DNA from: Geobacter metallireducens GS-15
GTDB taxonomy: Bacteria; Desulfobacterota; Desulfuromonadia; Geobacterales; Geobacteraceae
NCBI RefSeq assembly: GCF_000012925.1
Contig: NC_007517.1
Coordinates: 2,730,001 to 2,762,000 of the forward strand
Length of the DNA: 32,000 nucleotides
Direction of reading: 5' to 3'
Shown: piece after piece, positions 2,018 to 19,525 of the stretch
Layout: the number at the start of each line of letters is the position of its first letter
How positions within the stretch are numbered: position 1 is the first letter of the stretch
Notes under the pieces: model-generated
What the model saw: only the letters and a program-made list of their open reading frames with translations
What the model was told of the DNA's origin: nothing
The model's database searches: none
Position numbers and translations under genes: made by a program

Positions 2018-3085
2018 CTACCCGCAGAGCCGCAGCACTTCCCGGGCGATGGTATCCAGGGGGATAACCCGGTCGGCCCCTCCCCGCTTGATGGCCTCGT
2101 TGGGCATGCCGAAAACGATGCAGGTGGCTTCGTCCTGGGCGATGGTGACGGCGCCGGCATCCCTCATCTCCTTCATGCCGCTGGCGCCGTCGTCCCCCAT
2201 GCCGGTCATGATGACCCCCACGGCGTTCTTGCCGGCGTAGCGGGCCGCCGAGCGGAAGAGGACGTCGACGGAGGGGCGGTGGCGGGAGACCAGCGGCCCG
2301 TCCTTGATCTCCACGTAGTAGCGGGCGCCGCTCCGCTTGAGGAGCGTGTGCCGGTTGCCGGGGGCGATGAGGGCCCTCCCCCGCATGACCGTGTCGTTGT
2401 CGGCCGCCTCCTTCACCGTGATGCGGCAGATGCCGTCAAGCCGCTGGGCAAAGGCCCGGGTGAATCCCTCGGGCATGTGCTGCACGATGACAATAGGAGG
2501 GGAATCCGCCGGGAGCGCTTCAAGGAAGACCCGCAGCGCCTCGGTGCCGCCGGTGGAAGCCCCCACGACCACCACCTTCTCGGTAGTCTGGATCATGGCC
2601 TTCGAGCCCGGCTTTTCCAGGATCACATCGGCGGAGAGCTTGGGAGCAATCTCCTTGCCGGTACGCGGCGTAATCTTGCGGAGCCTGGCCTGGCTCGCCG
2701 CCTTCACCGCGTCGCAGATCCTGACCCGCGACTCCTCCAGGAACTGCTTGGTGCCGAGCTTCGGTTTCTGGATGATCTCCACCGCCCCGTATTCCAAGGC
2801 CTTGACAGCCGTTTCCGAACCGCTCTCGGTGAGGGTCGAGCACATGACCACCGGGATGGGGTGCTGGCTCATGATTTTCTTGAGGAAGGTGATGCCGTCC
2901 ATGCGCGGCATCTCGACGTCGAGGGTGATGACATCGGGGACCTGCTCCCGCATCCGCTCCGCGGCGATGAAGGGATCGGCCGCCGGCGCCATGACCTCGA
3001 TATGGGGGTCCGAGGCGAGGATGTCGGCCATGGTCTGCCGCACTACAGCCGAATCGTCAACGATGAGCACCTTGATTTTCTTCAT
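2018..3085 (-). CDS. cheB: Chemotaxis response regulator protein-glutamate methylesterase CheB
   Basis: 355 aa. Contains an N-terminal receiver ([13 protein letters not shown]...DVEMPRMDG...KP) and a C-terminal methylesterase domain ([28 protein letters not shown]). Confidence 0.95.
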
Positions 3086-3120: not shown

Positions 3121-3603
3121 TTATTCTGCTCCGCCTCCCCGGCGGAGGCGCTTCAGAAAGACTTCGCCGGTGTGGGTCACAAAAAAAAGCTTCCGCCCCC
3201 GCGTTCCCCCAACGTCCTTGGCGGCAACCGTCAGCCCATTGGCAGCCAGGACCAGGGTGGCAATCTCCACGTTGCGCCGCCCTACCCCCACCCTGTTTCC
3301 TCCCGCGCCGATTATGTCGGCGCCGCCGAACACCTTCACCTCGAGGCGTTGGCGACTAACACCCTGGGCCGCAAACATTTCGAGCATGAGAAGGATGGAG
3401 GAATCGACATAACGGAAGGCGTCGGAACGGGGCCCCTCGGGGAGCAGCGCATGACAGATGGCGGCGGTGCCGCTGAGGCGATCGAACATGGTGACCGATA
3501 CGCACGAGCCGAGGACCGTGGTCACGACAGCAGGGGTTGCGGCAAAATGCAACTCTCCCGGTTTCAGATACACCTTCGGAAGATCGGGCGCAATGGCTGT
3601 CAT
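3121..3603 (-). CDS. cheD: Chemoreceptor glutamine deamidase CheD
   Basis: 160 aa with CheD family landmarks ([24 protein letters not shown]). Its ATG overlaps the cheR stop in an ATGA arrangement (3600-3603), which suggests translational coupling. Confidence 0.9.
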
Positions 3604-4469
3604 GGCGGTTTCCGATAGATGGTGGAGGCCACCTGGACCAGGGGGACATCGAGCCCCGACAGGGTTTCAGAGTGCCCCATGAAGAGGTATCCACCGGGGA
3701 TCAGATGGCGGCAGAACTTATTGAGAAGCCGCTCCTGGGTCCGCTTGTCGAAGTAGATAATGACATTGCGGCAGAAGATGATGTCCATGGGCTCCCGCAG
3801 GCCAAAATCGTCGTCCATGAAATTGAGCCTGCGGAACCTGATGCGGCCGCGCAACTCGGGGATGACACGCACGAGCCCCTTCTGTCCATCCTTCCCCCGG
3901 AGAAGGTACTTCCGCTTGAGGGGAAGGGAGACCGGCTCGACCCGCTCCTCCTCGTAGATGGCCAGCTTCGCCTTGTCAAGGACGGTGGTGCAGATGTCGG
4001 TGGCGAGGATACTGTAGGAAAACCCCTGGTTCTGTTCGGCGAATTCCGCAAGAACCATGGCGAGGGTGTAGGGCTCCTCGCCGCTGGAGCACCCCGCGCT
4101 CCAGAGGGAGAGCCCCTTGCGGAAACCGGCCCCCCGCGATTCCGCCAGGTCAGGGAGGGCCTTTCCCACCAGATAGTCGAAATGGGCCGGCTCGCGGAAA
4201 AAATCGGTTTTGTTGGTGGTGACCACGTCAATGAGGTGGACGAGCTCCAGCCCTGCCCCCTCGCGGCTGAAGATGAAATCGGCGTAGTCCTGAAACCCCC
4301 TCAGGCCCAGTGCCCTGAGCCGTTTCTGGAGCCGCGCCTCCAGCATCGTCTTCTTGGCCGGCGGCATCTTGATGCCACACTGGTCATAGATGAACTCGGC
4401 GAATCGCGAGAACTCCCGGTCGCTCATGGCCGCCGTGGCAAGGCGGTTGTCAGTGGCAGAATTGAGCAT
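3600..4469 (-). CDS. cheR: Chemotaxis protein methyltransferase CheR
   Basis: 289 aa with CheR landmarks: TTNKTDFFREPAHF, SLWSAGCSSGEEPYTLAM, IFCRNVIIYFD, GGYLFMGHSE. Confidence 0.95.
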   Translation of the reverse strand: MLNSATDNRLATAAMSDREFSRFAEFIYDQCGIKMPPAKKTMLEARLQKRLRALGLRGFQDYADFIFSREGAGLELVHLIDVVTTNKTDFFREPAHFDYLVGKALPDLAESRGAGFRKGLSLWSAGCSSGEEPYTLAMVLAEFAEQNQGFSYSILATDICTTVLDKAKLAIYEEERVEPVSLPLKRKYLLRGKDGQKGLVRVIPELRGRIRFRRLNFMDDDFGLREPMDIIFCRNVIIYFDKRTQERLLNKFCRHLIPGGYLFMGHSETLSGLDVPLVQVASTIYRKPP

Positions 4470-5355: not shown

Positions 5356-8300
5356 TCAGAACTTTTCGAATTCAGCGTCCATGGCGTCACTGTTTTCCAT
5401 TTCGAACGCATACCCTTTGGCAGTGCCAGGAGCGAGTTTTCCCGAATGGCCATTGTCGGCTGCAATATGGCCGACCTGGACCCGGTTTCGGGTTTTTGCC
5501 AGCTTGGATGCGGGGTTGCGGCTACCCTCATTCTTGAGCCTGAAAAAACTGATAGTTGACTGGAGTTGCTCTGCCTGGGCCGAGAGTTCTTCGGCAGTGG
5601 AGGCCATCTCCTCGGCGGCGCCGGCGTTCTGCTGGATCACCTGGTCCAGCTGCTGGATCGCCTTATTGATCTGTTCGGCGCCGGTATCCTGCTCACGGCT
5701 CGCAGCGCTGATTTCCTGGACAAGCTCAGCGGTCCGCTGGATATCGGGGACCATCCGCCCCAGCATCTCGCCGGCCCGTTCCGCAACCTCGACACTGGCT
5801 GACGACAGCTGGCTGATCTCCCCGGCTGCCTTCTGGCTCCGCTCGGCGAGCTTTCTCACCTCGGCGGCCACCACCGCAAAGCCTTTGCCGTGCTCGCCGG
5901 CCCGGGCCGCCTCGATGGCGGCGTTGAGAGCCAGGAGGTTCGTTTGTCGGGCAATCTCCTCGATGATGCTGATTTTCCCTGCGATATCCTTCATGGCGAC
6001 CACGGTCTCGGCCACCGCCTCCCCCCCGGCCTTGGCATCCGCGGCGCTCTTCATGGCGATTTTTTCGGTCTGGGCAGCATTATCGGCATTCTGCCGAATG
6101 TTAGAACTCATTTCCTCCATGCTTGAGGAGGCCTCTTCGGCTGCCGCTGCCTGCTCGGTGGCCCCCTGGCTCATCTCCTCGGAGCCAGAGCTCATCTGGG
6201 CCGATCCGGACGCAACGTTGTCGGCAGCAGTCTTGACCTCGGTCACAACGGCGGTCAACTGCCTGACCATTTCCGACAAAGCCTGCATCAATTCATCGGC
6301 TTCCGAACGCTGGGTGAGCTCCACGGTTAGATTGCCGGCCGCAACTTCTTTTGCGGCCGTGACCATGGAACGAGTCGCCGCCACCAGTGAGTTTATGTTA
6401 CGCGCAATTTCGGAGAAGGTTTTGTGGACAGATTCGGTATCCCCGTCGGCCGGAGCCGGTTCGATATGGATATTCACATCGCCTTGAGCCAGTTTGACAA
6501 GGGTACCGGTCAGCTTTGCCGCCTCGGCATTCTGGTAATCGGCAACTTTTTGGGCGGTGCGGGCGGCTTTCTTGACCGCCGTCTGGTCGGTGACCACCTC
6601 AAAGGCGCCGATGATCTTGCCGGCGGTATCCCGGATCGGCACGCCGGTGTAGGAAATATCGAGATCAAGCCCCGCCACGGGGTGAGCGTCGGTCTCGCTG
6701 CTCGAAACCTGTCCGTCACGGATGGCGCGGCCGCAGGCGCACTTGTCGGTCTTGCAGTCGGAGGTTTTGAAGTGATCGTAACACTTGCGGCCAATTACCT
6801 CCTGCTGTGTCCTCCCCCCCACCTTGGCACCCAGCTCGTTCATATAGAGGATCGAAAAATCGTTATCGACGATCATGGCGGGAGCGGGCATCGCGTCGAG
6901 GAACCCAACGAGCCGGTCGATGGTCTCGTTGACCCCTTCCACAACCTTCCGGTATTCGCCCTGGTGCTTTGCCGCATCTGCACGATGGGTGAGACGCCCT
7001 TCGACGGCTGCCTTCGCGAGTCCGGCTGTGTCGGACACGAGGGCGTTGACCGCATTGACACACGTGTTCATCGCATTGCCGAGAGCAAGGAACGTATCGT
7101 GAACCTCCCTGGTCTCGGCGTCACCGGGAGCGGCATCGATCCGGAAGCCGGCATCCCCTTGCGCCAGCCTTGAAAGGCCGTCCACGAGCTTTTCAGTCTC
7201 GGATTTCTGGTAGTCGGCCACCTTCTCGGCAAGGCGCGCCGCTTTCTTGACCGCCGTCTGGTCGGTGACAACCTCGAAGGCGCCGATGACCTTGCCGGCT
7301 GCATCCCGAATCGGCACGCCGCTGTAGGAGATATCGAGATCGAGCCCTGCCATGGGATGGGCGTCGGTCTCGCTGCTTGAGACCTGGCCGTCCCGAATTG
7401 CCCGGCCACAGGCACACCTCTCGGTCCTGCAGTCAGAGGTCTTGAAGTGGTCGTAGCACTTGCGGCCGATCACTTCCTTCTGGGTCTTTCCCCCCACCTT
7501 GGCGCCCAGTTCGTTCATATAGAGGATCGAGAAGTCGTTGTCGATGATCATGGCCGGCGCCGGCATCGCATCGAGGAACCCCACGAGCCGGTCGAAGACT
7601 CCATTCAGGCCTTCAACTATCCTGCGGTACTCTCCCTGGTGTTTCGACACATCCGCCCGATGGGTGAGCCGCCCTTCGACAGCCGCGGCATTGAGTGAAC
7701 CGGCATCGGCGGCAAGAGCATTGATCGCCGCCACCATCCGCGCCATGGAGGCCTGTAGCATGCCGGTCTCGTTCGTGGCCTCGCTATCGAGCTTCACATC
7801 CAGGTTCCCCGCGGCAATGCTGTCGGCAGCGGCCATGCATTCACGGATCGGCCGGGAGATGGAACGGGCGATGACAAGCCCCAGAAATCCGCCCAAGAGG
7901 ACACCAAAAATCGTCAGAATGATGACCGTGAGCTGTGCCCGTTTACCCGCGGTCACCCCCTGGACGCCAAGCTTTTCCACCGCCGCGCGATGGTACTGGA
8001 CCAGCTCGTCGACACCTTTCATGTATGCCGTCTGCCGATCCCTCACGGTAGTTATCAGAAGCACCTTGGCCTGGGCGTACTTGCCGGCCTTGATATCCGC
8101 AATGACAGTTGCGAGAGCCTCACGATACACTTTCAGTTCGTCAGTTACAGTCTTAAGCTTTCCCTTCTCTTCGTCGCTCTTTTCCGTTTTTTCTAGGGCT
8201 ACGACGATCTCTTCCGACTTCTGGAAGGCCTCCTGAATCCGGTCCAGTTCTTTCTGTTTCTGAACCGGGTCATCCAGGAGAATGGCATTGCGAACCGCAC

Positions 8301-8496
8301 GGGCGACGATATTTGCTTGGTTCACCATCTCGTGGGCCTGAACGGTCTTGGGGAATTTCTCCTCGGAGATTATGGCGAGGTCGTTATCAATGAGGTGTGT
8401 CTGGAAGTATGTCACCACCCCCAGCACAATCATGACGGCCAGGATTGCGGCAAAGCCCGCCCAGAGTTTTGATGCAATCTTCAGGTTTTTAAACAT
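5356..8496 (-). CDS. Methyl-accepting chemotaxis protein with duplicated cytoplasmic PAS-like (4-Cys) modules
   Basis: 1046 aa. Order of elements: TM1, periplasmic helical region, TM2 (aa ~189-211), HAMP, two copies of a 225-aa module, HAMP, canonical MCP signalling domain ([37 protein letters not shown]), long linker, C-terminal EFEKF. AAGGAGG lies 5 nt upstream of the ATG. Confidence 0.95.
6337..7686 (-). repeat. In-frame tandem duplication, 2 x 675 bp (7686..7012 and 7011..6337), inside the MCP gene
   Basis: Protein residues 271-495 and 496-720 repeat with a period of exactly 225 aa. A hand alignment of 6841-6920 against 7516-7595 (offset 675) gives 9 mismatches in 80 nt. Confidence 0.9.
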
Positions 8497-8790: not shown

Positions 8791-11013
8791 TCAGAACTTT
8801 TCGAATTCGGTGTCCATGGAGTCACCACTACCCATATCATATGAAATTCCACCAACCGCCAAGGGAGGCTGATCCCCGCGGTTTTTGGCAGGGAGCGCAG
8901 CATTGCCGGCGTCCATATGCCCGACATGGATCCGTTTTGCGGCCCTCGTCAGCCTGGCTTCGGGTCTCCTTCGTTCCTCGTCACCAATCCGGAAAAAGCC
9001 AATGGTTGTCTGGAGTTGTTCCGCCTGGCTGGCCAGCTCCTCTGAGGTAGAGGACATTTCTTCGCTGGCCGAGGCGTTCTGCTGAATAACGGTATCGAGC
9101 TGCTGAATCGCCTTATTGATCTGCTCGGCCCCGGTGTCCTGCTCACGGCAGGCCGCGCTGATCTCCTGCACCAGTTCCGCCGTTCGCTGGATGTCGGGAA
9201 CGATGGTTGCCAGCAGTTCCCCGGCCCTGACCGCCACCTCGACACTGGATGAGGAGAGCTCACTGATTTCGCCGGCAGCCCGCTGACTCCGCTCGGCCAG
9301 CTTGCGCACCTCCGAGGCGACCACCGCGAAACCCTTGCCGTGCTCACCTGCGCGCGCCGCCTCGATAGCCGCGTTGAGCGCCAGCAGGTTCGTTTGCCGG
9401 GCAATCTCCTCGATGATGGATATCTTGCCGGCGATATCTTTCATGGCTTGCACTGTGTTGCCTACAGCCTTTCCCCCCTCGATGGCATCGGCAGCGGACT
9501 TCGTGGCAATCCGCTCGGTCTGGGTGGCGTTGTCGGCGTTCTGACGGATGTTCGCAGCCATCTGCTCCATGCTGCTGGAAGCCTCTTCGGCAGCTGCAGC
9601 TTGCTCGGTGGCCCCCTGGCTCATCTCCTCGGACGTGGAGGAGAGCTGCTGGCTCCCCGACCCAACATTATCGGCAGCCGAGACAATGTCTCTCACCACG
9701 TCGCGCAGCCGGGCCACCATGGAGGCCAATGCACGCATCAGCTCATCCTGTGCGGAGCGTTCCCGAACCTCAACCATCAGATTACCGCCGGCAATCTCCT
9801 GGGCCAGCTTCGTTACGGCGTTCATGGAATCGATGAGGCTGTTCAGGTTTTTCTTTATCTCATTGAAATCACCCTTGTACTCCTCGCTGATCCGCTCGGG
9901 GATATCCCCACGGCTGATGCGGTCGAGGGAGACGGCCGTCATGTGGATTGGAGCGACAAAGGCCTCGATGAGCCGGTTGATTCCGGCCACCAGATCGCGC
10001 CACCCGCCGTCGAATGATGTGGCGTCCCCCCGTTGGTCCAGTTTGCCGTCCTGAACAGATGTAACAAGGTGTTCTGTCTCCCTTTGAAGGTTGTTGAGGG
10101 TGGCCAGCATTCGGCCAAGGTTGCGGGCAAGGATGTCCTGCTCGGAACGGACTTCCACCACCTTGACCGACAGATCGCCTCCGGCCACCTTCTCGGCGGC
10201 GTTGGCCAGGACCCGCATGCTTTCCACCATGTTCTTCATGGAGGAGAGGAGCTGGCCGGTTTCGTCGGTACGGTCCACGTCGATAGCAACCGAAAGGTCT
10301 CCCACGGCGAGGGCATTGGACACCGCCACCGCCTTCTGCAGCGGCAGCGTAATGCTGCGGGTCAGAATGAATGCCAGAATTATTGCCAGAACAATGGATA
10401 TGGCACTCACGGATATAAGGAGCATCTGTGCCTTGCCGGCAAGCGCATTGGCCTCTTTGACCATCTCTTCCATCCGCTTTTCGGAGCCCTTTGCAAAATC
10501 ATTGACGCCGGCCTCGAAGCGGTGGGCCTCATCCTTCACGTCGCCGATGGCCTTATTGGCATCGGTGGTCGTCTTGATCTCGCCCGCCTTGATCTTCTCA
10601 TGCACCTTTTTGAAGCCATTGGCATAGCCGAGCAGGTCTTTTTTGAGCCCGGCCACAACTTCCTTTTCCTTTGTTGAATCATAGTCAGTCTTTGACAGCC
10701 CCTTTTCGATAGCATCGACGCGTGCCATTATGTGCTCAAATGTTTCATCCCACTTCTTTCGGTATTCCTCCGTTTTCTGGACGTTGCCAATATTGATGTA
10801 CAGGTCCTTTTCGTAGCGGCGCAGCATATTGACGTTGGCACGGGCACGCTGACCGGAAATGACCATATCGGCATCCACCTTTATGGCATCATCCATCGTG
10901 GCCTTGAGTTGCCTCGTGGACCAAAGGCCCGTCCCCCCGACAACCAAAAGAAACAGCGTCAACAAACCGAAGCCAATTGCCAACTTGATACCGATTTTCT
11001 GATTCTTCAACAC
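8791..11013 (-). CDS. Methyl-accepting chemotaxis protein with a multi-HAMP array
   Basis: The track ORF extends to 11052. I prefer the GTG at 11013 ([15 protein letters not shown]...), which has GAGAGG upstream and gives an N-terminus parallel to the other two MCPs. An ATG at 11034 is possible but has no SD. Contains two TM segments, about five HAMP-like units, a canonical MCP signalling domain and a C-terminal EFEKF. Confidence 0.9.
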
Positions 11014-11088
11014 GGGGCACCTCTCTTTACTCATGAAGCGGTGTATCCACACCTCACACTCTTGTGGAATGTATTGACTCTAAGGAAT

Positions 11089-11238: not shown

Positions 11239-12984
11239 TCAAAACTTTTCAAATTCTTTGTCCAGATTGTCAGATTCGGAGCTGAGGTCGAGATCGACGC
11301 CTGCGCTTCCCGCTTTCCTGGTAGACGCACTGGCGACGTAGCCGTTGGCGCTGTGTGAAGCAATATGCTTCACCTCCACCTTGTGGGCAGGGGGCTTCCT
11401 GACGCTTGCGCTCCTGCCCGAAACGCTGCCATCCACCTTGAAGAAGCCGATGGTCGCCTGCAGCTGTTCGGCCTGGGAGGCAAGCTCCTCGGAAGTGGAG
11501 GCCATCTCTTCGGAAGCACTGGCATTCTGCTGGATTACCTGGTCGAGCTGCTGGATCGCCTTGTTGATCTGTTCGGCGCCGGTATCCTGCTCCTTGCACG
11601 CCGCGCTGATCTCCTGCACCAGTTCCGCCGTCCGCTGGATGTCGGGAACCAGGCGCTCAAGCATCTCGCCCGCCTTTTCCGCCACGTCGACGCTCGTGGC
11701 CGACAGCTCGCTGATCTCGCCCGCCGCCTTCTGGCTCCGCTCGGCCAGCTTTCTCACCTCGGCCGCAACCACCGCAAACCCCTTGCCGTGCTCGCCGGCC
11801 CGGGCCGCCTCGATGGCCGCGTTCAGGGCCAGCAGGTTCGTCTGACGGGCAATCTCCTCAATGATGGATATCTTGCCGGCGATCTCCTTCATGGCATTGA
11901 CGGTCTGGCCTACCGCCTTGCCCCCTTCTTTGGCGTCGGTGGCACTCTTAAGGGCGATTTTTTCGGTCTGCTGGGCATTGTCGGCGTTCTGGCGAATATT
12001 GGAGCTCATCTGTTCCATGCTGGACGATGCCTCTTCAGCCGCCGCCGCCTGCTCCGTGGCCCCCTGGCTCATCTCCTCGCTGCTGGAAGAAAGTTCCTGA
12101 CTCCCGGCGGCAACATTGTCGGAAGCCGATTTCACGTCCGCCACCACGATTTTCAGCTTTTCCACCATGTTCGCCATGGCTTCGAGAAGCTGCCCGGTCT
12201 CGTCCTTGCTGGTGACGTCGATGGCTATGGTCAGATCGCCGCCGGCAAGCCTGGTGGCCACATCAACCCCTTGCTTCAATGGCCGGGTAATGGCACGGCT
12301 GATGAATATCCCGATCCCAAGCCCCAGCACCAAGGCCACAAGGCTTAACCCGATCATGGCCTTGACGGCCATCTGCTCATCCTTTTCCGCAGTGGCGACG
12401 GAGTCGTTGGTAAACTTCTCGACATTTTTCAGGAACGTGTCTATCGCCTGCTCAAGATCACTTCCCTCCTTTTCCACCCGGTGCTCCAGTTCAGTAACTG
12501 CACTGAACTTACCGGCATCGAGGGTGGAAAAGAGCTCCTGAGTGACTTTCTCAAAGTCGTTGTATTCCTTCTCGATCACCTTCAGGCGTTCAGCCATTTC
12601 GGTGAATTCCTTCTGGACTGCCGCATCTCCAGCCGTTTCCTTGAGAGCTTGCTGCACCACCTGTTCAGCCTTTTTCAGGGTGGCATCAAACTCCTTGGCC
12701 TTATTACCGAACGCTTCCTCCACTTTCTTCAGTTCGGCCTGCTGGTTGTTTGTCCCCAGACGCACCGCCCGATGGAAAAGGACCATTTCATCCATCTGGA
12801 TCTTCCCTACTTCATTGATCGCCTCGGTAAGGGGAATGTCCTGCTTGTCAATGCCCGCAATTTCCTCACCAATCCCTTTCATCTTCACAACGCCGAAGGC
12901 GGCTATCGTCATCATGAATGCAAGCATGAGCGTTACCAGGCCGAGAATCTTGGTGCCTATCTTCATGTTATTCATGAGCTTCAT
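11239..12984 (-). CDS. Methyl-accepting chemotaxis protein
   Basis: 581 aa. Order of elements: TM1, helical periplasmic domain, TM2, single HAMP, canonical MCP signalling domain, linker, C-terminal EFEKF. AAGGAGG lies 7 nt upstream of the ATG. Confidence 0.95.
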
Positions 12985-14769: not shown

Positions 14770-17253
14770 TCAGGACATTTCGCCGACCGCCGCCTCTACC
14801 CGGCGGACTTCGCGGCGAAGCAAGGGAATAGTCCGGGCGACAGCGACGCCGTCGCTCTTTCGAGCCGCCGTTTCCACGTCGGCGGCGTATCTGCTGACAT
14901 GGGGCGCGCCGATTGTTGCAGCCGCTCCCTTCACGGAGTGGGCAGCCGCGGCCAGTTCAGCGTACTTGCCGGTGGCGAGGTATTCCTCCATCCGTTCGCA
15001 CTCCGTCGCCGTTGACTGGGCGAAGATGGAGAGGACCTCAGCAAGGCAGTCCCCGATTCCCGCGTCATGGAACTGTGATTGCTGGAATTCAAGGTCAAAC
15101 GGGGAACCTTCATCGGGAGCATCACGCATCGGGCATCTCTCCTCGGGTGGCAATTCGCCTCTTTCTCCGGCGATGCGAAGGAGCATCCTCTGCAACTCGC
15201 CACGGATAAGGGGCTTGGATAGGTAGTCGGACATCCCTGCGGCAAGAAAACGGTCCCGGTCATCCTTCAGGGCATGGGCAGTCAGGGCGACAATCGGAAT
15301 CGCGCGAGCCTTCTCCCCCGCGTCCCCCCGGCGGATCGCCCGGGTGGCCTCGATCCCGTCCATCTCGGGCATTGAAATATCCATGAGGACCAGGTCGTAC
15401 GTGCCATCCCTGAGGGCGTCAACAGCCTCCCTGCCGTTGGCGACGGCAGCGACCCGCTGCTTGAGCGCCGTGAGCAGACCAATGGCCACCGTCCGGTTCA
15501 GCTCGTTGTCCTCGACCACAAGCACAGAGAGGCTGGGAAGTACGCTGTCGGAAAGCTCCTCGCCGGCGGTTTTGTCCGCTGGAGGACCGGTTGCGGGCCT
15601 CAGGGGGAGGAGAACACGGAAGACCGCCCCTTTCCCCGCCTCACTCTCCACCTCGATGGTTCCCCCCATCAGTTCCACCAGCCCCCGTGTTATGGCGAGC
15701 CCGAGGCCGGTTCCGCCATAGTTGCGGGTTGTGGAAGAATCGGCCTGGCGGAACATCTCGAAGATTCTCTCATGTTTGTCCTTCTCTATCCCGATGCCGG
15801 TGTCACTTACTGTGAAGAGCAGATTTCCGCCGGCAGGGTCCGCATCTGCAGCAAGGGTGACCCGCCCACCCGTCGGGGTAAACTTGATGGCATTCGAAAG
15901 GAGATTGGTCAGTACCTGACGGAGGCGGGCCGGATCGCCACAAATAAACTGCGGCGCCTCATCGCCCACAAGGATCGAGAGGCTGATGTTTTCTCGTTCT
16001 GCCTTTACGGCAAAAAGGCGGCGGAGCGATTCGACAAAGGAGCGGAGTTCCAGCGCTTCGTCCGAAAGCTCCAGGCGCCGGGCTTCGACCCGGGAGAAAT
16101 CGAGAATGTCGTTGATGATGGTCAGGAGCGATTCGGCGGCATTGCTCGAGTCGTCCACCAGCCGGCGCTGCTGCTGAGAGAGATGGGTCTCCTGCAGCAA
16201 CTGGTTGATCCCTATGATGGCGTTCATGGGAGTACGGATCTCATGACTCATGGTGGCGAGAAATTCGCCCTTGACACGGTTCGCCTCCTCGGCCTCTTCT
16301 CTAGCCTGGACAAGTTCGGCGGTCTTCTCTTCCACTTTTTCCTCCAGGTTATTGATGAAGGCGTGGAGTTCCGTCGACATGACGTTGAAAGACGCGGCGA
16401 GTTCATTCATTTCACGGTCGCGGCCGAGAGGGATCTGCTCACCGAGGTAACGGCGGTCGTGGGCGATCCGGCGGGCACTTTCGGTGACAGATGCCAGAGG
16501 GCTTAGGACAACACGGCCGAAGAACCAGTTCTTGATGGCGAAAAACGAGGCAATCACCGCAAGGAGCAACGCCGACAGTCTGAGGGAAAAACTGTTGGCC
16601 TCGGCATAGGCCTCGGACAGGGGAATCCGGATGGAAATTGCCGACACGAGCTCGTTCTCGTGGCGGCTGAAGCTGCGGTTGGGCCCATAGGTGCGGACCA
16701 GGCCGCCTGGTGCCGTCTCCGGGTTACTGTGGCAGAGCAGGCAGGACTTCTCCATTGCTTCGCCGCGTGCCATGGCGACGAAAAACAACTTGCCGTCGAT
16801 CTCGCGTACGCCGTTGAACGTGGTAACCGCCGGATTGTGGCTGGCCCGCTCCAAGAACTCACGCTCGAAGGGATCGGCCTCGTTCCGGGGGCTCCGGGCG
16901 TTGATGGCGCATTCCTTGTAGTAGTACCCTTTCCCGTGGCGTGACTGGAATATTTTGTCGATCTCTCGGACGGCATAGGTGGAGGACATCCAGACCGGAT
17001 CGAAGTAATCCTTGTCCCGCAGGGACGCGGTGAAGTCAAGAAGCCGCGGCTTGAGCTCCTTGTTGATATAGGCATGGATTGCGAGATACCGCACGAGGAT
17101 TCGCTCGGCATCCCGGCCGGCATCGTTGAGGGCCAGCCGCTTCTGGGCGACGTTCACCACCAGGACGATGACAAGGGATGTGACGCCGAGGAGGAGGAGA
17201 TTTATCCGGAGAAGCCGTGCCTTTATTGAGGAAGCCTGTTTCTGGAGAACCAT
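14770..17253 (-). CDS. Hybrid sensor histidine kinase: periplasmic c-type-heme (DUF3365-like) sensor, HAMP, HisKA, HATPase, receiver, HPt
   Basis: 827 aa with these elements:
- TM1 at aa ~15-35
- CLLCH at aa 171-175 in the context [23 protein letters not shown]
- TM2
- H-box ([10 protein letters not shown])
- N/G boxes ([21 protein letters not shown])
- receiver (VLVVEDN...DISMPEMDG...KP)
- HPt ([15 protein letters not shown]). Confidence 0.9.
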
Positions 17254-17416: not shown

Positions 17417-19525
17417 TCAACGGGCCATCTGCTCCAGTTCCACATCGCGCACCAGTTGGGGAATATCGAGGATGAGGGCCACTGAGCCGTCACCCAGAAT
17501 GGTGGCACCCGAGAGACCTTGGACGTCCCTGTACATCTTCCCCAACGACTTGATCACCGTCTGATGCTCGCCGATGACGTGGTCCACCACAAAGCCGACC
17601 CTCGTTCCCCCCACCCGGGTGATGACGATCTGCTCGATCTCCGGCTGCTCACCCCGGATGAGGAACCGCTCCCGCAAGGGGATGTAGGGGACAATCTGGT
17701 CCCGGACCGTGGCCAGGTTGCGGCCGTGGGCGTTGCGCACATCTTCCCGGGTCAGTTCCACGCACTCCTCCACGACGGAGAGGGGGAGCACGAAGCAGTC
17801 GGAGCCGATCTTCACGAGGAGGCTCTCGATGATGGCAAGGGTTAGCGGCAGCTTGATGGTGATGACGGTCCCCGTCCCCCGCTCGCTCCGGATGTCGATG
17901 GTTCCCCGCAGGGCGTCGATGGCCCGCTTCACCACGTCCATGCCGACCCCGCGCCCCGAGACGCTCGTGACGGTCGTGGCGGTGGAGAAGCCGGGGGCGA
18001 AGATGAGGCTGAAGATCTCCTTGTCGGAGAGTTCGGCCGTGGCCGGGATGAGTCCCCGCTCGACCCCCTTGGCCCGGATCGCCTCCCGGTCGAGTCCCTT
18101 GCCGTCGTCGGTGATGGTGATGAGGACGCTGTCCCCCGAGTGTACTGCGGCCAGGTGCACGGTCCCCTGGGGAGGCTTGCCGGCGGCGGCCCGCTCCTCG
18201 GGGCGCTCGATGCCGTGGTCGATGGAGTTGCGGATGAGATGGACCAGGGGATCGTTCAGCTTCTCGATGACCGTCTTGTCCAGCTCGGTCTCGGCGCCGT
18301 CGGTGGTCATCTCGATATCCTTGCCCAGCTCCACCGACAGATCCCGCACCAGTCGCTTGAACTTGCTGAAGGTGGTGCCGATGGGGAGCATCCGGATGTT
18401 GAGGGCCGTGTCGCGCAACTCGTTGGTGAGCCGCTCCACCTCCTCGGCAATGGTAACCAGCAGGGCATCGGCCCGGCCGGCGGCGGTCTGGGAAAGACGG
18501 GCCTGGACGGTGACGAGTTCTCCCACCAGGTTCACCAGCAGGTCGAGCTTTTCCGCCGGTACCCGGATGCTCGACGCGCTCTCCTGGACCTGGCGCTCCT
18601 TGCGGACCTCCTTCACGTGCTGCTGCTCGATGAGGGCCGACTCAACCTTCTCGGGGGAAACGATTCCCTGCTCGACGAGGAGTTCGCCGAAGCGCTTCTG
18701 TTTGGCGAGAATCGCCTCCATGTCCTGCCGGGTCAGATCACCCCGTTCCGCGAGAATAAAGCCGAGCTTCTTGTAATCGGCGTCAACGTCGAGGATACCG
18801 CCGTCGTCGATGACATCGATTTTCAGCTCGCAGTCGTCCTCGATAAAAATGAAGACGTCCCGAATGGCGTCAATCCCCCGGTTCGTAGTCAAAATCACGT
18901 CCCAGAAGACGTGGCAGTGTTCAGGATCAATCTCCTCCAACCGGGGCACTTTTGCCATCTGGGCAACGGTTCGGCAGTGGCCCAACTGGCGGAGTTCCGC
19001 CAGAAGGAGCAGCGGGTTGGTACCGTTGACGGTCACCTCAGGGGAAGGAACAAAGCGGATGCGGTAGGTGACCGCTGTTTCACCCCTCTTCGATTCCTGG
19101 GCGCCTCCTCCCACGGGTGTTTCTTTGGCGGATGCGCCATCCGGCTCCGCCGGCACAAGCCGCCGGAGCCCGGCGATGACCTCCTCTGCCTGGCGCCCTT
19201 CCACCGGTTCTGCCCCGCCGTCCGAGGCGTCCAGCATCCCCTTAATGAGGTCCCGAGCCTTGAGGGTGAGGTTGACCAGGTCCCTCGTGACCGTCATCCG
19301 GCCGTTGCGGACCATGTCGAAGACGGTTTCCACCTCGTGGGTGAAGGTGGCAATGTCGTCGAAGCCGAACATGGCCCCGGACCCCTTGATGGTGTGCATG
19401 GCACGAAAGACCCGGCTGATGAGGTCCATGTCCTCGGGAGTTTCCTCCAGCTCCAGGAGCGATGTCTCCAGCTCCGCCAGGAGCTCGTAGGCCTCTTCCT
19501 TGTATGCCTGCCTGTGGGCGTCCAT
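17417..19525 (-). CDS. cheA: Chemotaxis histidine kinase CheA
   Basis: 702 aa with these elements:
- P1 HPt (MHTIKGSGAMFG)
- P2-like region
- an inserted pair of LGxxLxxxG...Q motifs at aa 253-301
- P3/P4 (HLIRNSIDHGIE, DDGKGLD, GRGVGMDVV)
- P5 CheW-like C-terminus
The ATG overlaps the cheY stop (TAATG at 19523-19527). Confidence 0.95.
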   Translation of the reverse strand: MDAHRQAYKEEAYELLAELETSLLELEETPEDMDLISRVFRAMHTIKGSGAMFGFDDIATFTHEVETVFDMVRNGRMTVTRDLVNLTLKARDLIKGMLDASDGGAEPVEGRQAEEVIAGLRRLVPAEPDGASAKETPVGGGAQESKRGETAVTYRIRFVPSPEVTVNGTNPLLLLAELRQLGHCRTVAQMAKVPRLEEIDPEHCHVFWDVILTTNRGIDAIRDVFIFIEDDCELKIDVIDDGGILDVDADYKKLGFILAERGDLTRQDMEAILAKQKRFGELLVEQGIVSPEKVESALIEQQHVKEVRKERQVQESASSIRVPAEKLDLLVNLVGELVTVQARLSQTAAGRADALLVTIAEEVERLTNELRDTALNIRMLPIGTTFSKFKRLVRDLSVELGKDIEMTTDGAETELDKTVIEKLNDPLVHLIRNSIDHGIERPEERAAAGKPPQGTVHLAAVHSGDSVLITITDDGKGLDREAIRAKGVERGLIPATAELSDKEIFSLIFAPGFSTATTVTSVSGRGVGMDVVKRAIDALRGTIDIRSERGTGTVITIKLPLTLAIIESLLVKIGSDCFVLPLSVVEECVELTREDVRNAHGRNLATVRDQIVPYIPLRERFLIRGEQPEIEQIVITRVGGTRVGFVVDHVIGEHQTVIKSLGKMYRDVQGLSGATILGDGSVALILDIPQLVRDVELEQMAR

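Follow-up and report, generated by a model that had tools for sequence, protein, structure and literature searches.

Known Iron-Sulfur PAS Domains and Known Redox Sensors of Chemoreceptors

To our knowledge, the redox and oxygen sensors known in chemoreceptors use FAD (Aer), heme (Aer2, HemAT, and DcrA), hemerythrin (DcrH), a diiron site (ODP), or zinc (CZB). Outside chemoreceptors, OrpR (DVU2106) of D. vulgaris Hildenborough, a sigma-54 AAA+ activator, carries an N-terminal PAS domain that binds a redox-sensitive [4Fe-4S]2+ cluster; this cluster requires C52, C61, and C65, and a conserved D/E is found nearby at position 54 (PMC8359166). The PAS domain of the histidine kinase NreB from S. carnosus is a [4Fe-4S] O2 sensor, and B. 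licheniformis NreB is a three-Cys [2Fe-2S] sulfide sensor in which the three conserved Cys are complemented by a labile fourth ligand (PMC13478379). In classifying PAS domains, Xing et al. (2023) cite only NreB for Fe-S and assign the NreB PAS to a PAS sequence cluster different from that of the domains analyzed here (PMC10468136). Our literature search found no description of an iron-sulfur chemoreceptor or of a Cys-cluster PAS domain in chemoreceptors; searches with motif strings (CX8CX4C and similar) returned only unrelated proteins, a review of Geobacter chemotaxis does not mention a Cys-cluster PAS domain, and the OrpR paper (PMC8359166) does not mention chemoreceptors.

Domain Architecture and Genomic Context of the Receptor

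The window analyzed here is a 32,000-nt stretch of Geobacter metallireducens GS-15 (contig NC_007517.1), to which all coordinates below refer; all features described are located on the minus strand. One ORF (5356..8496) encodes a 1046-aa methyl-accepting chemotaxis protein (MCP), designated P0001, in which Pfam identified 4HB_MCP_1, HAMP, HAMP_2, two PAS_4, and MCPsignal domains. The N-terminus is formed by a periplasmic four-helix-bundle ligand-binding domain (residues 4–175, 7972..8487; PF12729 4HB_MCP_1, E 1.4e-22), representing a second, external input separate from the PAS modules, and is followed by a membrane-proximal HAMP (residues 208–259, 7720..7875; PF00672, E 1.6e-15). A HAMP_2-like helical segment (residues 285–305, 7582..7644; PF18947 profile positions 1–21, E 3.5e-8) directly precedes PAS domain 1 (residues 308–417, 7246..7575; PF08448 PAS_4, also recovered with AlphaFold2 and Foldseek). 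A further HAMP_2-like helical segment (residues 510–531, 6904..6969; PF18947) precedes PAS domain 2 (residues 533–642, 6571..6900), which was detected as the second stretch matching Pfam PAS_9/PAS. The C-terminal part contains a HAMP (residues about 702–748, 6253..6393; PF00672, E 2.5e-5) and the MCP signaling (kinase-control) domain (residues 813–953, 5638..6060; PF00015 MCPsignal, E 4.3e-33). Both PAS domains are positioned after the transmembrane and HAMP region and are therefore cytoplasmic, in agreement with the initial annotation, which had proposed a cytoplasmic input present twice in series.

The signaling domain (PF00015), the HAMP domains, and the surrounding che genes all identify P0001 as an MCP. 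A Pfam scan of neighboring ORFs revealed a chemotaxis cluster, encoded entirely on the same strand, that includes cheA (17417-19525), a Tll0287-type hybrid kinase, a GGDEF gene, two more MCP genes (11239-12984 and 8791-11052), P0001, cheW immediately downstream of P0001 (4499..5035), cheR (3600-4469), and cheB (2018-3085). The CheW, CheR, CheB, and CheA proteins of this cluster, together with its two other MCPs, most likely constitute the pathway that P0001 feeds into.

Pfam also showed that the PAS domains of P0001 are flanked by HAMP-type helical modules, an arrangement shared with Aer2 (P. aeruginosa and V. cholerae), in which the PAS is likewise located between HAMP-type modules and upstream of the MCP signaling domain. 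A single-sequence search of the PDB yielded no close relative; Aer2 was its best match, with an E of 0.026 and a match restricted to the first 40 PAS residues, and the HAMP_2-to-PAS junction of P0001 presented a weak NCBIfam match to Vibrio Aer2. However, Aer2 is a soluble protein with a single PAS domain that binds heme b, whereas P0001 is a transmembrane protein with a periplasmic four-helix bundle, two PAS modules, and a Cys cluster in each of them.

Two Copies of a Cysteine Motif within the PAS Fold

Translation of the minus strand at 7390-7476 and 6715-6801 placed the two motifs exactly where they had been annotated. Cysteine cluster 1 (7408..7458) reads C347-x8-C356-x4-C361-x-C363 and includes D349, H350, and D355, and cysteine cluster 2 (6733..6783) reads C572-x8-C581-x4-C586-x-C588; these two motifs account for eight of the ten cysteines in P0001. 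The initial annotation had further noted that all four Cys are kept between the copies while neighboring residues have drifted; the first part of this statement holds, but the drift is mild, as only three conservative changes are found in the 17-residue motif, the PAS domains are 90% identical, and the complete 189-aa modules are 80% identical.

The assignment of these modules to a PAS-like fold, previously a proposal made from the letters alone, is borne out by a Pfam PAS_4 match (E 8e-29) and by an AlphaFold2 model of PAS1 (residues 303–426, built from a 48-row alignment) that presented canonical PAS topology with a mean pLDDT of 96 and a pTM of 0.86. A Foldseek search with this model returned LOV, FAD, and heme PAS domains with TM of about 0.8. 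The nearest solved structures, both by profile (E 1.2e-10) and by fold (TM 0.82), are LOV domains (e.g., 6rhg and 9vf7); the PDB profile search returned only PAS domains of differing cofactors, with LOV on top, and no solved structure carrying the Cys triad was found among the PDB matches of the single-sequence and profile searches. Searches of NCBIfam and the ESM Atlas yielded only generic “PAS” labels.

In the AlphaFold2 model, C347 begins the short E-alpha helix, C356 lies within a well-ordered E-F loop, and C361 and C363 are found at the N-terminus of F-alpha. Sequence and profile alignments match the “GRKC” around C347 with the “GRNC” of LOV domains; C347 thus occupies the position of the photoactive Cys that forms the flavin adduct, which indicates that the Cys cluster is located in the cofactor pocket rather than at the periphery of the domain. 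P0001 has three further Cys that LOV domains lack, and flavin binding of the LOV type was rejected because the GxNCRFLQ motif is not kept (P0001 reads GRKCYDHF, retaining only the Gly, Arg, and Cys). A c-type heme PAS/Cache sensor (as in DcrA and GSU0582/0935) was rejected as well, since P0001 contains no CxxCH and its PAS domains are cytoplasmic, not periplasmic.

Conservation and Distribution of the Cysteine Motif

A region search recovered 612 relatives of similar length, and an exhaustive search with the domain recovered 13,157 representative proteins at E<=1e-3, including 399 at E<=1e-30. Conservation was assessed in an alignment of 554 PAS domains from 267 proteins found in the exhaustive search. 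The first three Cys are kept in 499 of these 554 domains and all four in 349, so that the conservation of the Cys motif across homologues, which had been suggested as a check, is far beyond chance. In 150 of the 554 domains the first three Cys are retained and the fourth position is occupied by V, T, L, or I; the invariant core is thus the triad C347/C356/C361, to which C363 is an add-on. Consequently, the site is family-invariant in its triad, but its initial description as a fixed set of four cysteines is not correct, as the fourth position varies. The remaining 55 domains are Cys-poor and include those of a 4799-aa protein with 30 matched PAS stretches.

Besides the Cys, residues K346, F351, T353, T358, E376, T377, Y391, and E408 are near-invariant. 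Position 349 is D or E in 381 of the 499 triad domains (D349 and D574 in P0001), and triad domains present a His either at position 350 (together with D355, as in P0001) or at position 355; C363, H350, or H355 is present in 455 of the 499. A Pfam scan of 60 family members identified MCPsignal in 37 and a kinase or GGDEF output in none; the close family is linked almost only to chemoreceptor outputs. Members were found in Geobacter, Geomonas, Trichlorobacter, Desulfurivibrionaceae, Desulfobulbales, Desulfonema, and Thiobaca, as well as in metagenome-assembled genomes (MAGs) of Bacillota, Spirochaetota, Planctomycetota, Fibrobacteraceae, Rhodocyclaceae, Thiobacillaceae, and Acidobacteriaceae. 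The family thus spans several phyla, and its hosts are mostly anaerobes or come from anoxic habitats, which speaks for an Fe-S site; however, the Acidobacteriaceae, Thiobacillaceae, and Rhodocyclaceae MAG hosts are not strict anaerobes, which counts against an Fe-S site.

Within the G. metallireducens genome, the sole close copies of the domain are the two in P0001. The next match is a PAS-PAS kinase with C-x8-C-x6-C at the same place, followed by a dCache-HAMP-PAS kinase with C-x10-C-x2-C-x4-C and by a PAS-GGDEF-EAL protein with C-x9-CC-x2-C, both again at the same place, while a fifth, weaker PAS match has no such Cys; the closer PAS relatives are thus those that carry a Cys cluster. Loops of such variable length would be easier to reconcile with a cluster-binding site than with a rigid zinc knuckle. 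A single genome therefore encodes related Cys-cluster PAS domains on two histidine kinases and one GGDEF-EAL protein.

Relationship to OrpR-Type PAS Domains

The motif of OrpR reads C-x-[DE]-x6-C-x3-C and that of P0001 reads C-x-D-x6-C-x4-C-x-C; homology was assessed by searching the domain profile against 301 genomes of the same phylum. This search returned many matches (E 1e-16 to 1e-22) at the N-terminus of ORFs of 437–482 aa. Ten such ORFs were examined, eight of which were full; all four of those scanned with Pfam presented a PAS-Sigma54_activat architecture, and three of the four also contained HTH_8. One of these activators (L090), from a Humidesulfovibrio-like genome, has its Cys at exactly positions 52, 61, and 65, as well as E54, and is followed downstream by genes for Nitro_FeMo-Co, ParA/NUBPL, and CbiA+Fer4 proteins (Pfam), a gene set that we take to be the orp cluster known from D. 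vulgaris Hildenborough. Based on the Cys numbering and the orp-gene synteny, L090 is here treated as an OrpR orthologue. In BLASTP, the P0001 PAS matched L090 with E 9e-13 and 26% identity, the likeness to OrpR thus being measured through L090; the match to L086, an activator whose three Cys are spaced C-x8-C-x4-C like those of P0001, presented E 2e-18 and 31% identity.

A MAFFT alignment of both P0001 copies, six sigma-54 activators (including L090), and one kinase from the P0001 genome showed the three Cys and F351 as invariant columns. The column of D349 contains D or E in every row (E54 in L090), and the column of C363 contains Leu or Met in the sigma-54 activators and the histidine kinase. 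P0001 and the OrpR-type proteins thus share the PAS fold, three Cys placed between E-alpha and F-alpha, an acidic residue two positions after the first Cys, and the placement of that Cys within G-R-x-C-aromatic-[DE]-x-F, with x8 to the second Cys; both also occur in anaerobes. They differ in the spacing between the second and third Cys (x4 in P0001 and L086, x3 in OrpR), in the presence of C363 in place of the OrpR Leu, and in the additional H350 and D355 of P0001. P0001 is moreover a chemoreceptor rather than a sigma-54 AAA+ activator, and, unlike OrpR, it carries a tandem pair of domains, with a putative cofactor, between HAMP-type segments.

Judged by these comparisons, the closest characterized relative of the P0001 PAS is OrpR, rather than NreB. 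The initial annotation had guessed at an Fe-S site with reference to NreB; homology to OrpR-type PAS domains supports this guess, but the NreB motif (C63-x2-C66-x11-C78) does not fit. NreB does resemble P0001 in that a cytoplasmic PAS domain holds an Fe-S cluster in its pocket through conserved Cys; in the B. licheniformis protein, these Cys number three and the fourth ligand is variable or labile. However, it has a histidine kinase output, no specific sequence relation between its PAS and that of P0001 was detectable, and an NreB-type assignment was rejected because the Cys of P0001 are found at 347/356/361/363, with no C-x2-C.

Nature of the Cysteine Site

We consider it probable that each P0001 PAS domain, located between HAMP-type helical segments as in Aer2, provides an Fe-S-based redox or oxygen input. 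Three Cys combined with a fourth ligand that varies are characteristic of sensory Fe-S sites, as in OrpR and B. licheniformis NreB, although the parallel with OrpR involves only 26–31% identity and a spacing between the second and third Cys that is one residue off that of OrpR. The main rival explanation is that the Cys bind a structural or regulatory zinc (as Cys4, or as Cys3His with His355), which would either stabilize the E-F loop or serve as a Zn or thiol-oxidation sensor resembling zinc-thiolate switches. It owes this standing to the fourth Cys and its His and Asp neighbors: four Cys are found within 17 residues along with a conserved His and Asp, and C363, along with D355 and with H350 or H355, would likewise be compatible with a Zn(Cys)4 or Cys3His site. 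The family pattern can be read in the same way, as His355 is present in 98 of the 150 domains that lack C363, and the presence of C363, H350, or H355 in nearly all triad domains follows a Cys4/Cys3His logic. In addition, exchanges between Zn and Fe-S are known from homologous sites, and chemoreceptors already use zinc in the unrelated CZB domain, which was found in 3 of the 60 family members scanned. Zinc nevertheless appears unlikely, since both the fourth Cys and the His are absent from the OrpR-type relatives, and a shared core limited to three protein ligands would be uncommon for structural Zn; moreover, the site is found at the position of the LOV Cys, within the sensory pocket, and the characterized homologue OrpR holds Fe-S and not Zn (PMC8359166). 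A metal-free thiol/disulfide switch, in which oxidants would link the clustered Cys and thereby shift the PAS conformation, would be in line with clustered Cys in a sensor domain of an anaerobe and with a cytoplasmic location that keeps them reduced until oxidative stress. We regard such a switch as highly improbable, because two Cys would suffice for it and it leaves unexplained the invariant triad, the fixed x8/x4 spacing, and the acidic, His, and Glu neighbors conserved across phyla; the OrpR homologue is also cluster-bound (PMC8359166).

Other alternatives accept an Fe-S cluster and differ in what it would detect. An exchangeable coordination position could let the site report a specific small ligand or the supply of a metal (sulfide, NO, or Fe2+) instead of bulk redox potential or O2, as might be suggested by the variable fourth ligand position in the family and by hosts that are iron- and sulfur-cycling bacteria; the fourth position is, however, a Cys in P0001, which argues for a closed coordination sphere, and we consider this alternative very unlikely. 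C-x-C pairs are unusual for [4Fe-4S] clusters and better known in [2Fe-2S] proteins such as mitoNEET, so the cluster type in P0001 may differ from that of OrpR. It is conceivable, although we judge it quite unlikely, that the family represents a distinct chemotaxis-dedicated branch of Fe-S PAS domains with a ligand site unlike that of OrpR (e.g., a [2Fe-2S] or mixed-ligand site, one position of which is exchangeable) and used for steering by specific cues. The fourth Cys, the His swapping between positions 350 and 355, Asp349, and Glu408 would then form an enlarged ligand set, the presence of two modules in tandem would make the response broader or sharper, and iron- and sulfur-cycling anaerobes would steer to or from sulfide, NO, or Fe2+, and not merely by bulk redox state.

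Proposed Signaling Mechanism and Significance

The analyses above establish the gene, its architecture, the PAS fold, the conservation pattern, and the homology to an OrpR orthologue; for the favored explanation, an Fe-S redox or oxygen receptor, we infer as follows which cofactor is bound, which stimulus is sensed, and in which direction the signal runs. Each cytoplasmic PAS domain of P0001 would hold an Fe-S cluster ligated by C347, C356, and C361 (C572, C581, and C586 in the second copy), with C363 (C588) or a nearby Asp, His, or Glu as the fourth ligand; the cluster would occupy the pocket that canonically holds PAS cofactors, with the E-alpha/F-alpha region on one side and the inner beta-sheet face on the other. 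On the model of OrpR, a [4Fe-4S]2+ cluster would be kept in the reduced cell, and oxidizing conditions (O2, high redox potential, and possibly ROS or NO) would either convert this cluster or destroy it. This change would reshape the E-F loop and alter how the C-terminal helix of the PAS domain, with its D412-x-T414 motif, drives the next HAMP-type segment; the signal may then be relayed through the second PAS module and the last HAMP to the tip that controls CheA/CheW. The cell would then be guided by gradients of redox or oxygen, and the periplasmic four-helix bundle would add a second input of its own.

While OrpR-type Fe-S PAS domains are already known, the linkage to a chemoreceptor, the presence of four Cys, and the tandem arrangement in P0001 are, as far as our literature search shows, new. 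The P0001 PAS family is large, with 399 representative proteins at the stringent threshold above and members in several phyla. If the P0001 PAS domains indeed hold Fe-S clusters, the OrpR-type sensor would extend from one transcription factor to a general signaling module, and its presence in chemoreceptors would account for the way in which Geobacter and similar organisms find their position within redox gradients.

Evolution and Distribution of the Duplicated PAS Domain

The PAS copies of two-PAS proteins show concerted evolution, as seen when the two copies of the chemoreceptor (window positions 6571-6900 and 7246-7575) were compared with each other and with those of 155 homologous two-PAS proteins. 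Among these 155 proteins, identity between the two copies inside one protein had a median of 0.70 and reached a maximum of 0.99, and this within-protein identity was often higher than the identity to the same-position copy of other species; orthologous pairing of the copies was favoured in only 70 of the 155. This pattern points to an old PAS pair that would have been subject to gene conversion or repeated re-duplication, rather than to a single recent duplication.

The MCP-type PAS domain is unevenly distributed in the phylum; in a profile search of 301 sampled genomes, it was detected at E < 1e-30 in only approximately 14. This patchy pattern includes a 1063-aa orthologue (E = 3e-99) in G255, a genome of the same order, while no orthologue was found by this search in G102, a representative of the same genus, where the top match reached only E = 8e-10.

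Residues around the Cysteine Cluster

In the family alignment, the position of a histidine near the cysteines alternates between H350 (window positions 7447-7449, minus strand) and position 355, occupied by D355 in the receptor (7432-7434, minus strand); 220 domains carry H350 with D355, and 131 carry H355 with a residue other than His at position 350. This swap across the PAS family suggests that selection maintains one His close to the cysteines.

Two triad-PAS sigma-54 activators, encoded at L086:541-1926 (plus strand) and by the same ORF in L087, two loci from the same phylum, carry an extra C-x6-C-x4-C-x3-C cluster (Cys 8, 15, 20, and 24) N-terminal to the PAS, which may represent a second metal or cluster site. 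The PAS domain homologue search also identified two giant proteins, P0123 (4799 aa; 30 matched PAS stretches) and P0204 (1197 aa; eight matched stretches), with long tandem arrays of Cys-less PAS relatives, in which the Cys positions are filled by Leu/Tyr or Phe/Pro.

Putative Redox Inputs in the che Cluster and in the Genome

A hybrid histidine kinase gene (14770-17253, minus strand), flanked by cheA and a GGDEF gene, encodes a Tll0287-like periplasmic domain, HisKA, receiver, and HPt (Pfam). The Tll0287-like domain is a c-type heme Cache; this kinase is a putative second redox input within the same che cluster.

Besides the MCP, the G. metallireducens genome (G000) encodes three sensors with PAS Cys clusters, which share the E-F position and differ in spacing: a PAS-PAS histidine kinase (L082, G000:C1:802054-805380; C-x8-C-x6-C), a dCache-HAMP-PAS histidine kinase (L083, G000:C1:3176317-3179619; C-x10-C-x2-C-x4-C), and a PAS-GGDEF-EAL protein (L084, G000:C1:2974104-2977415; C-x9-CC-x2-C). 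With these three added to the MCP, a probable Fe-S PAS input would serve four kinds of output within a single cell.
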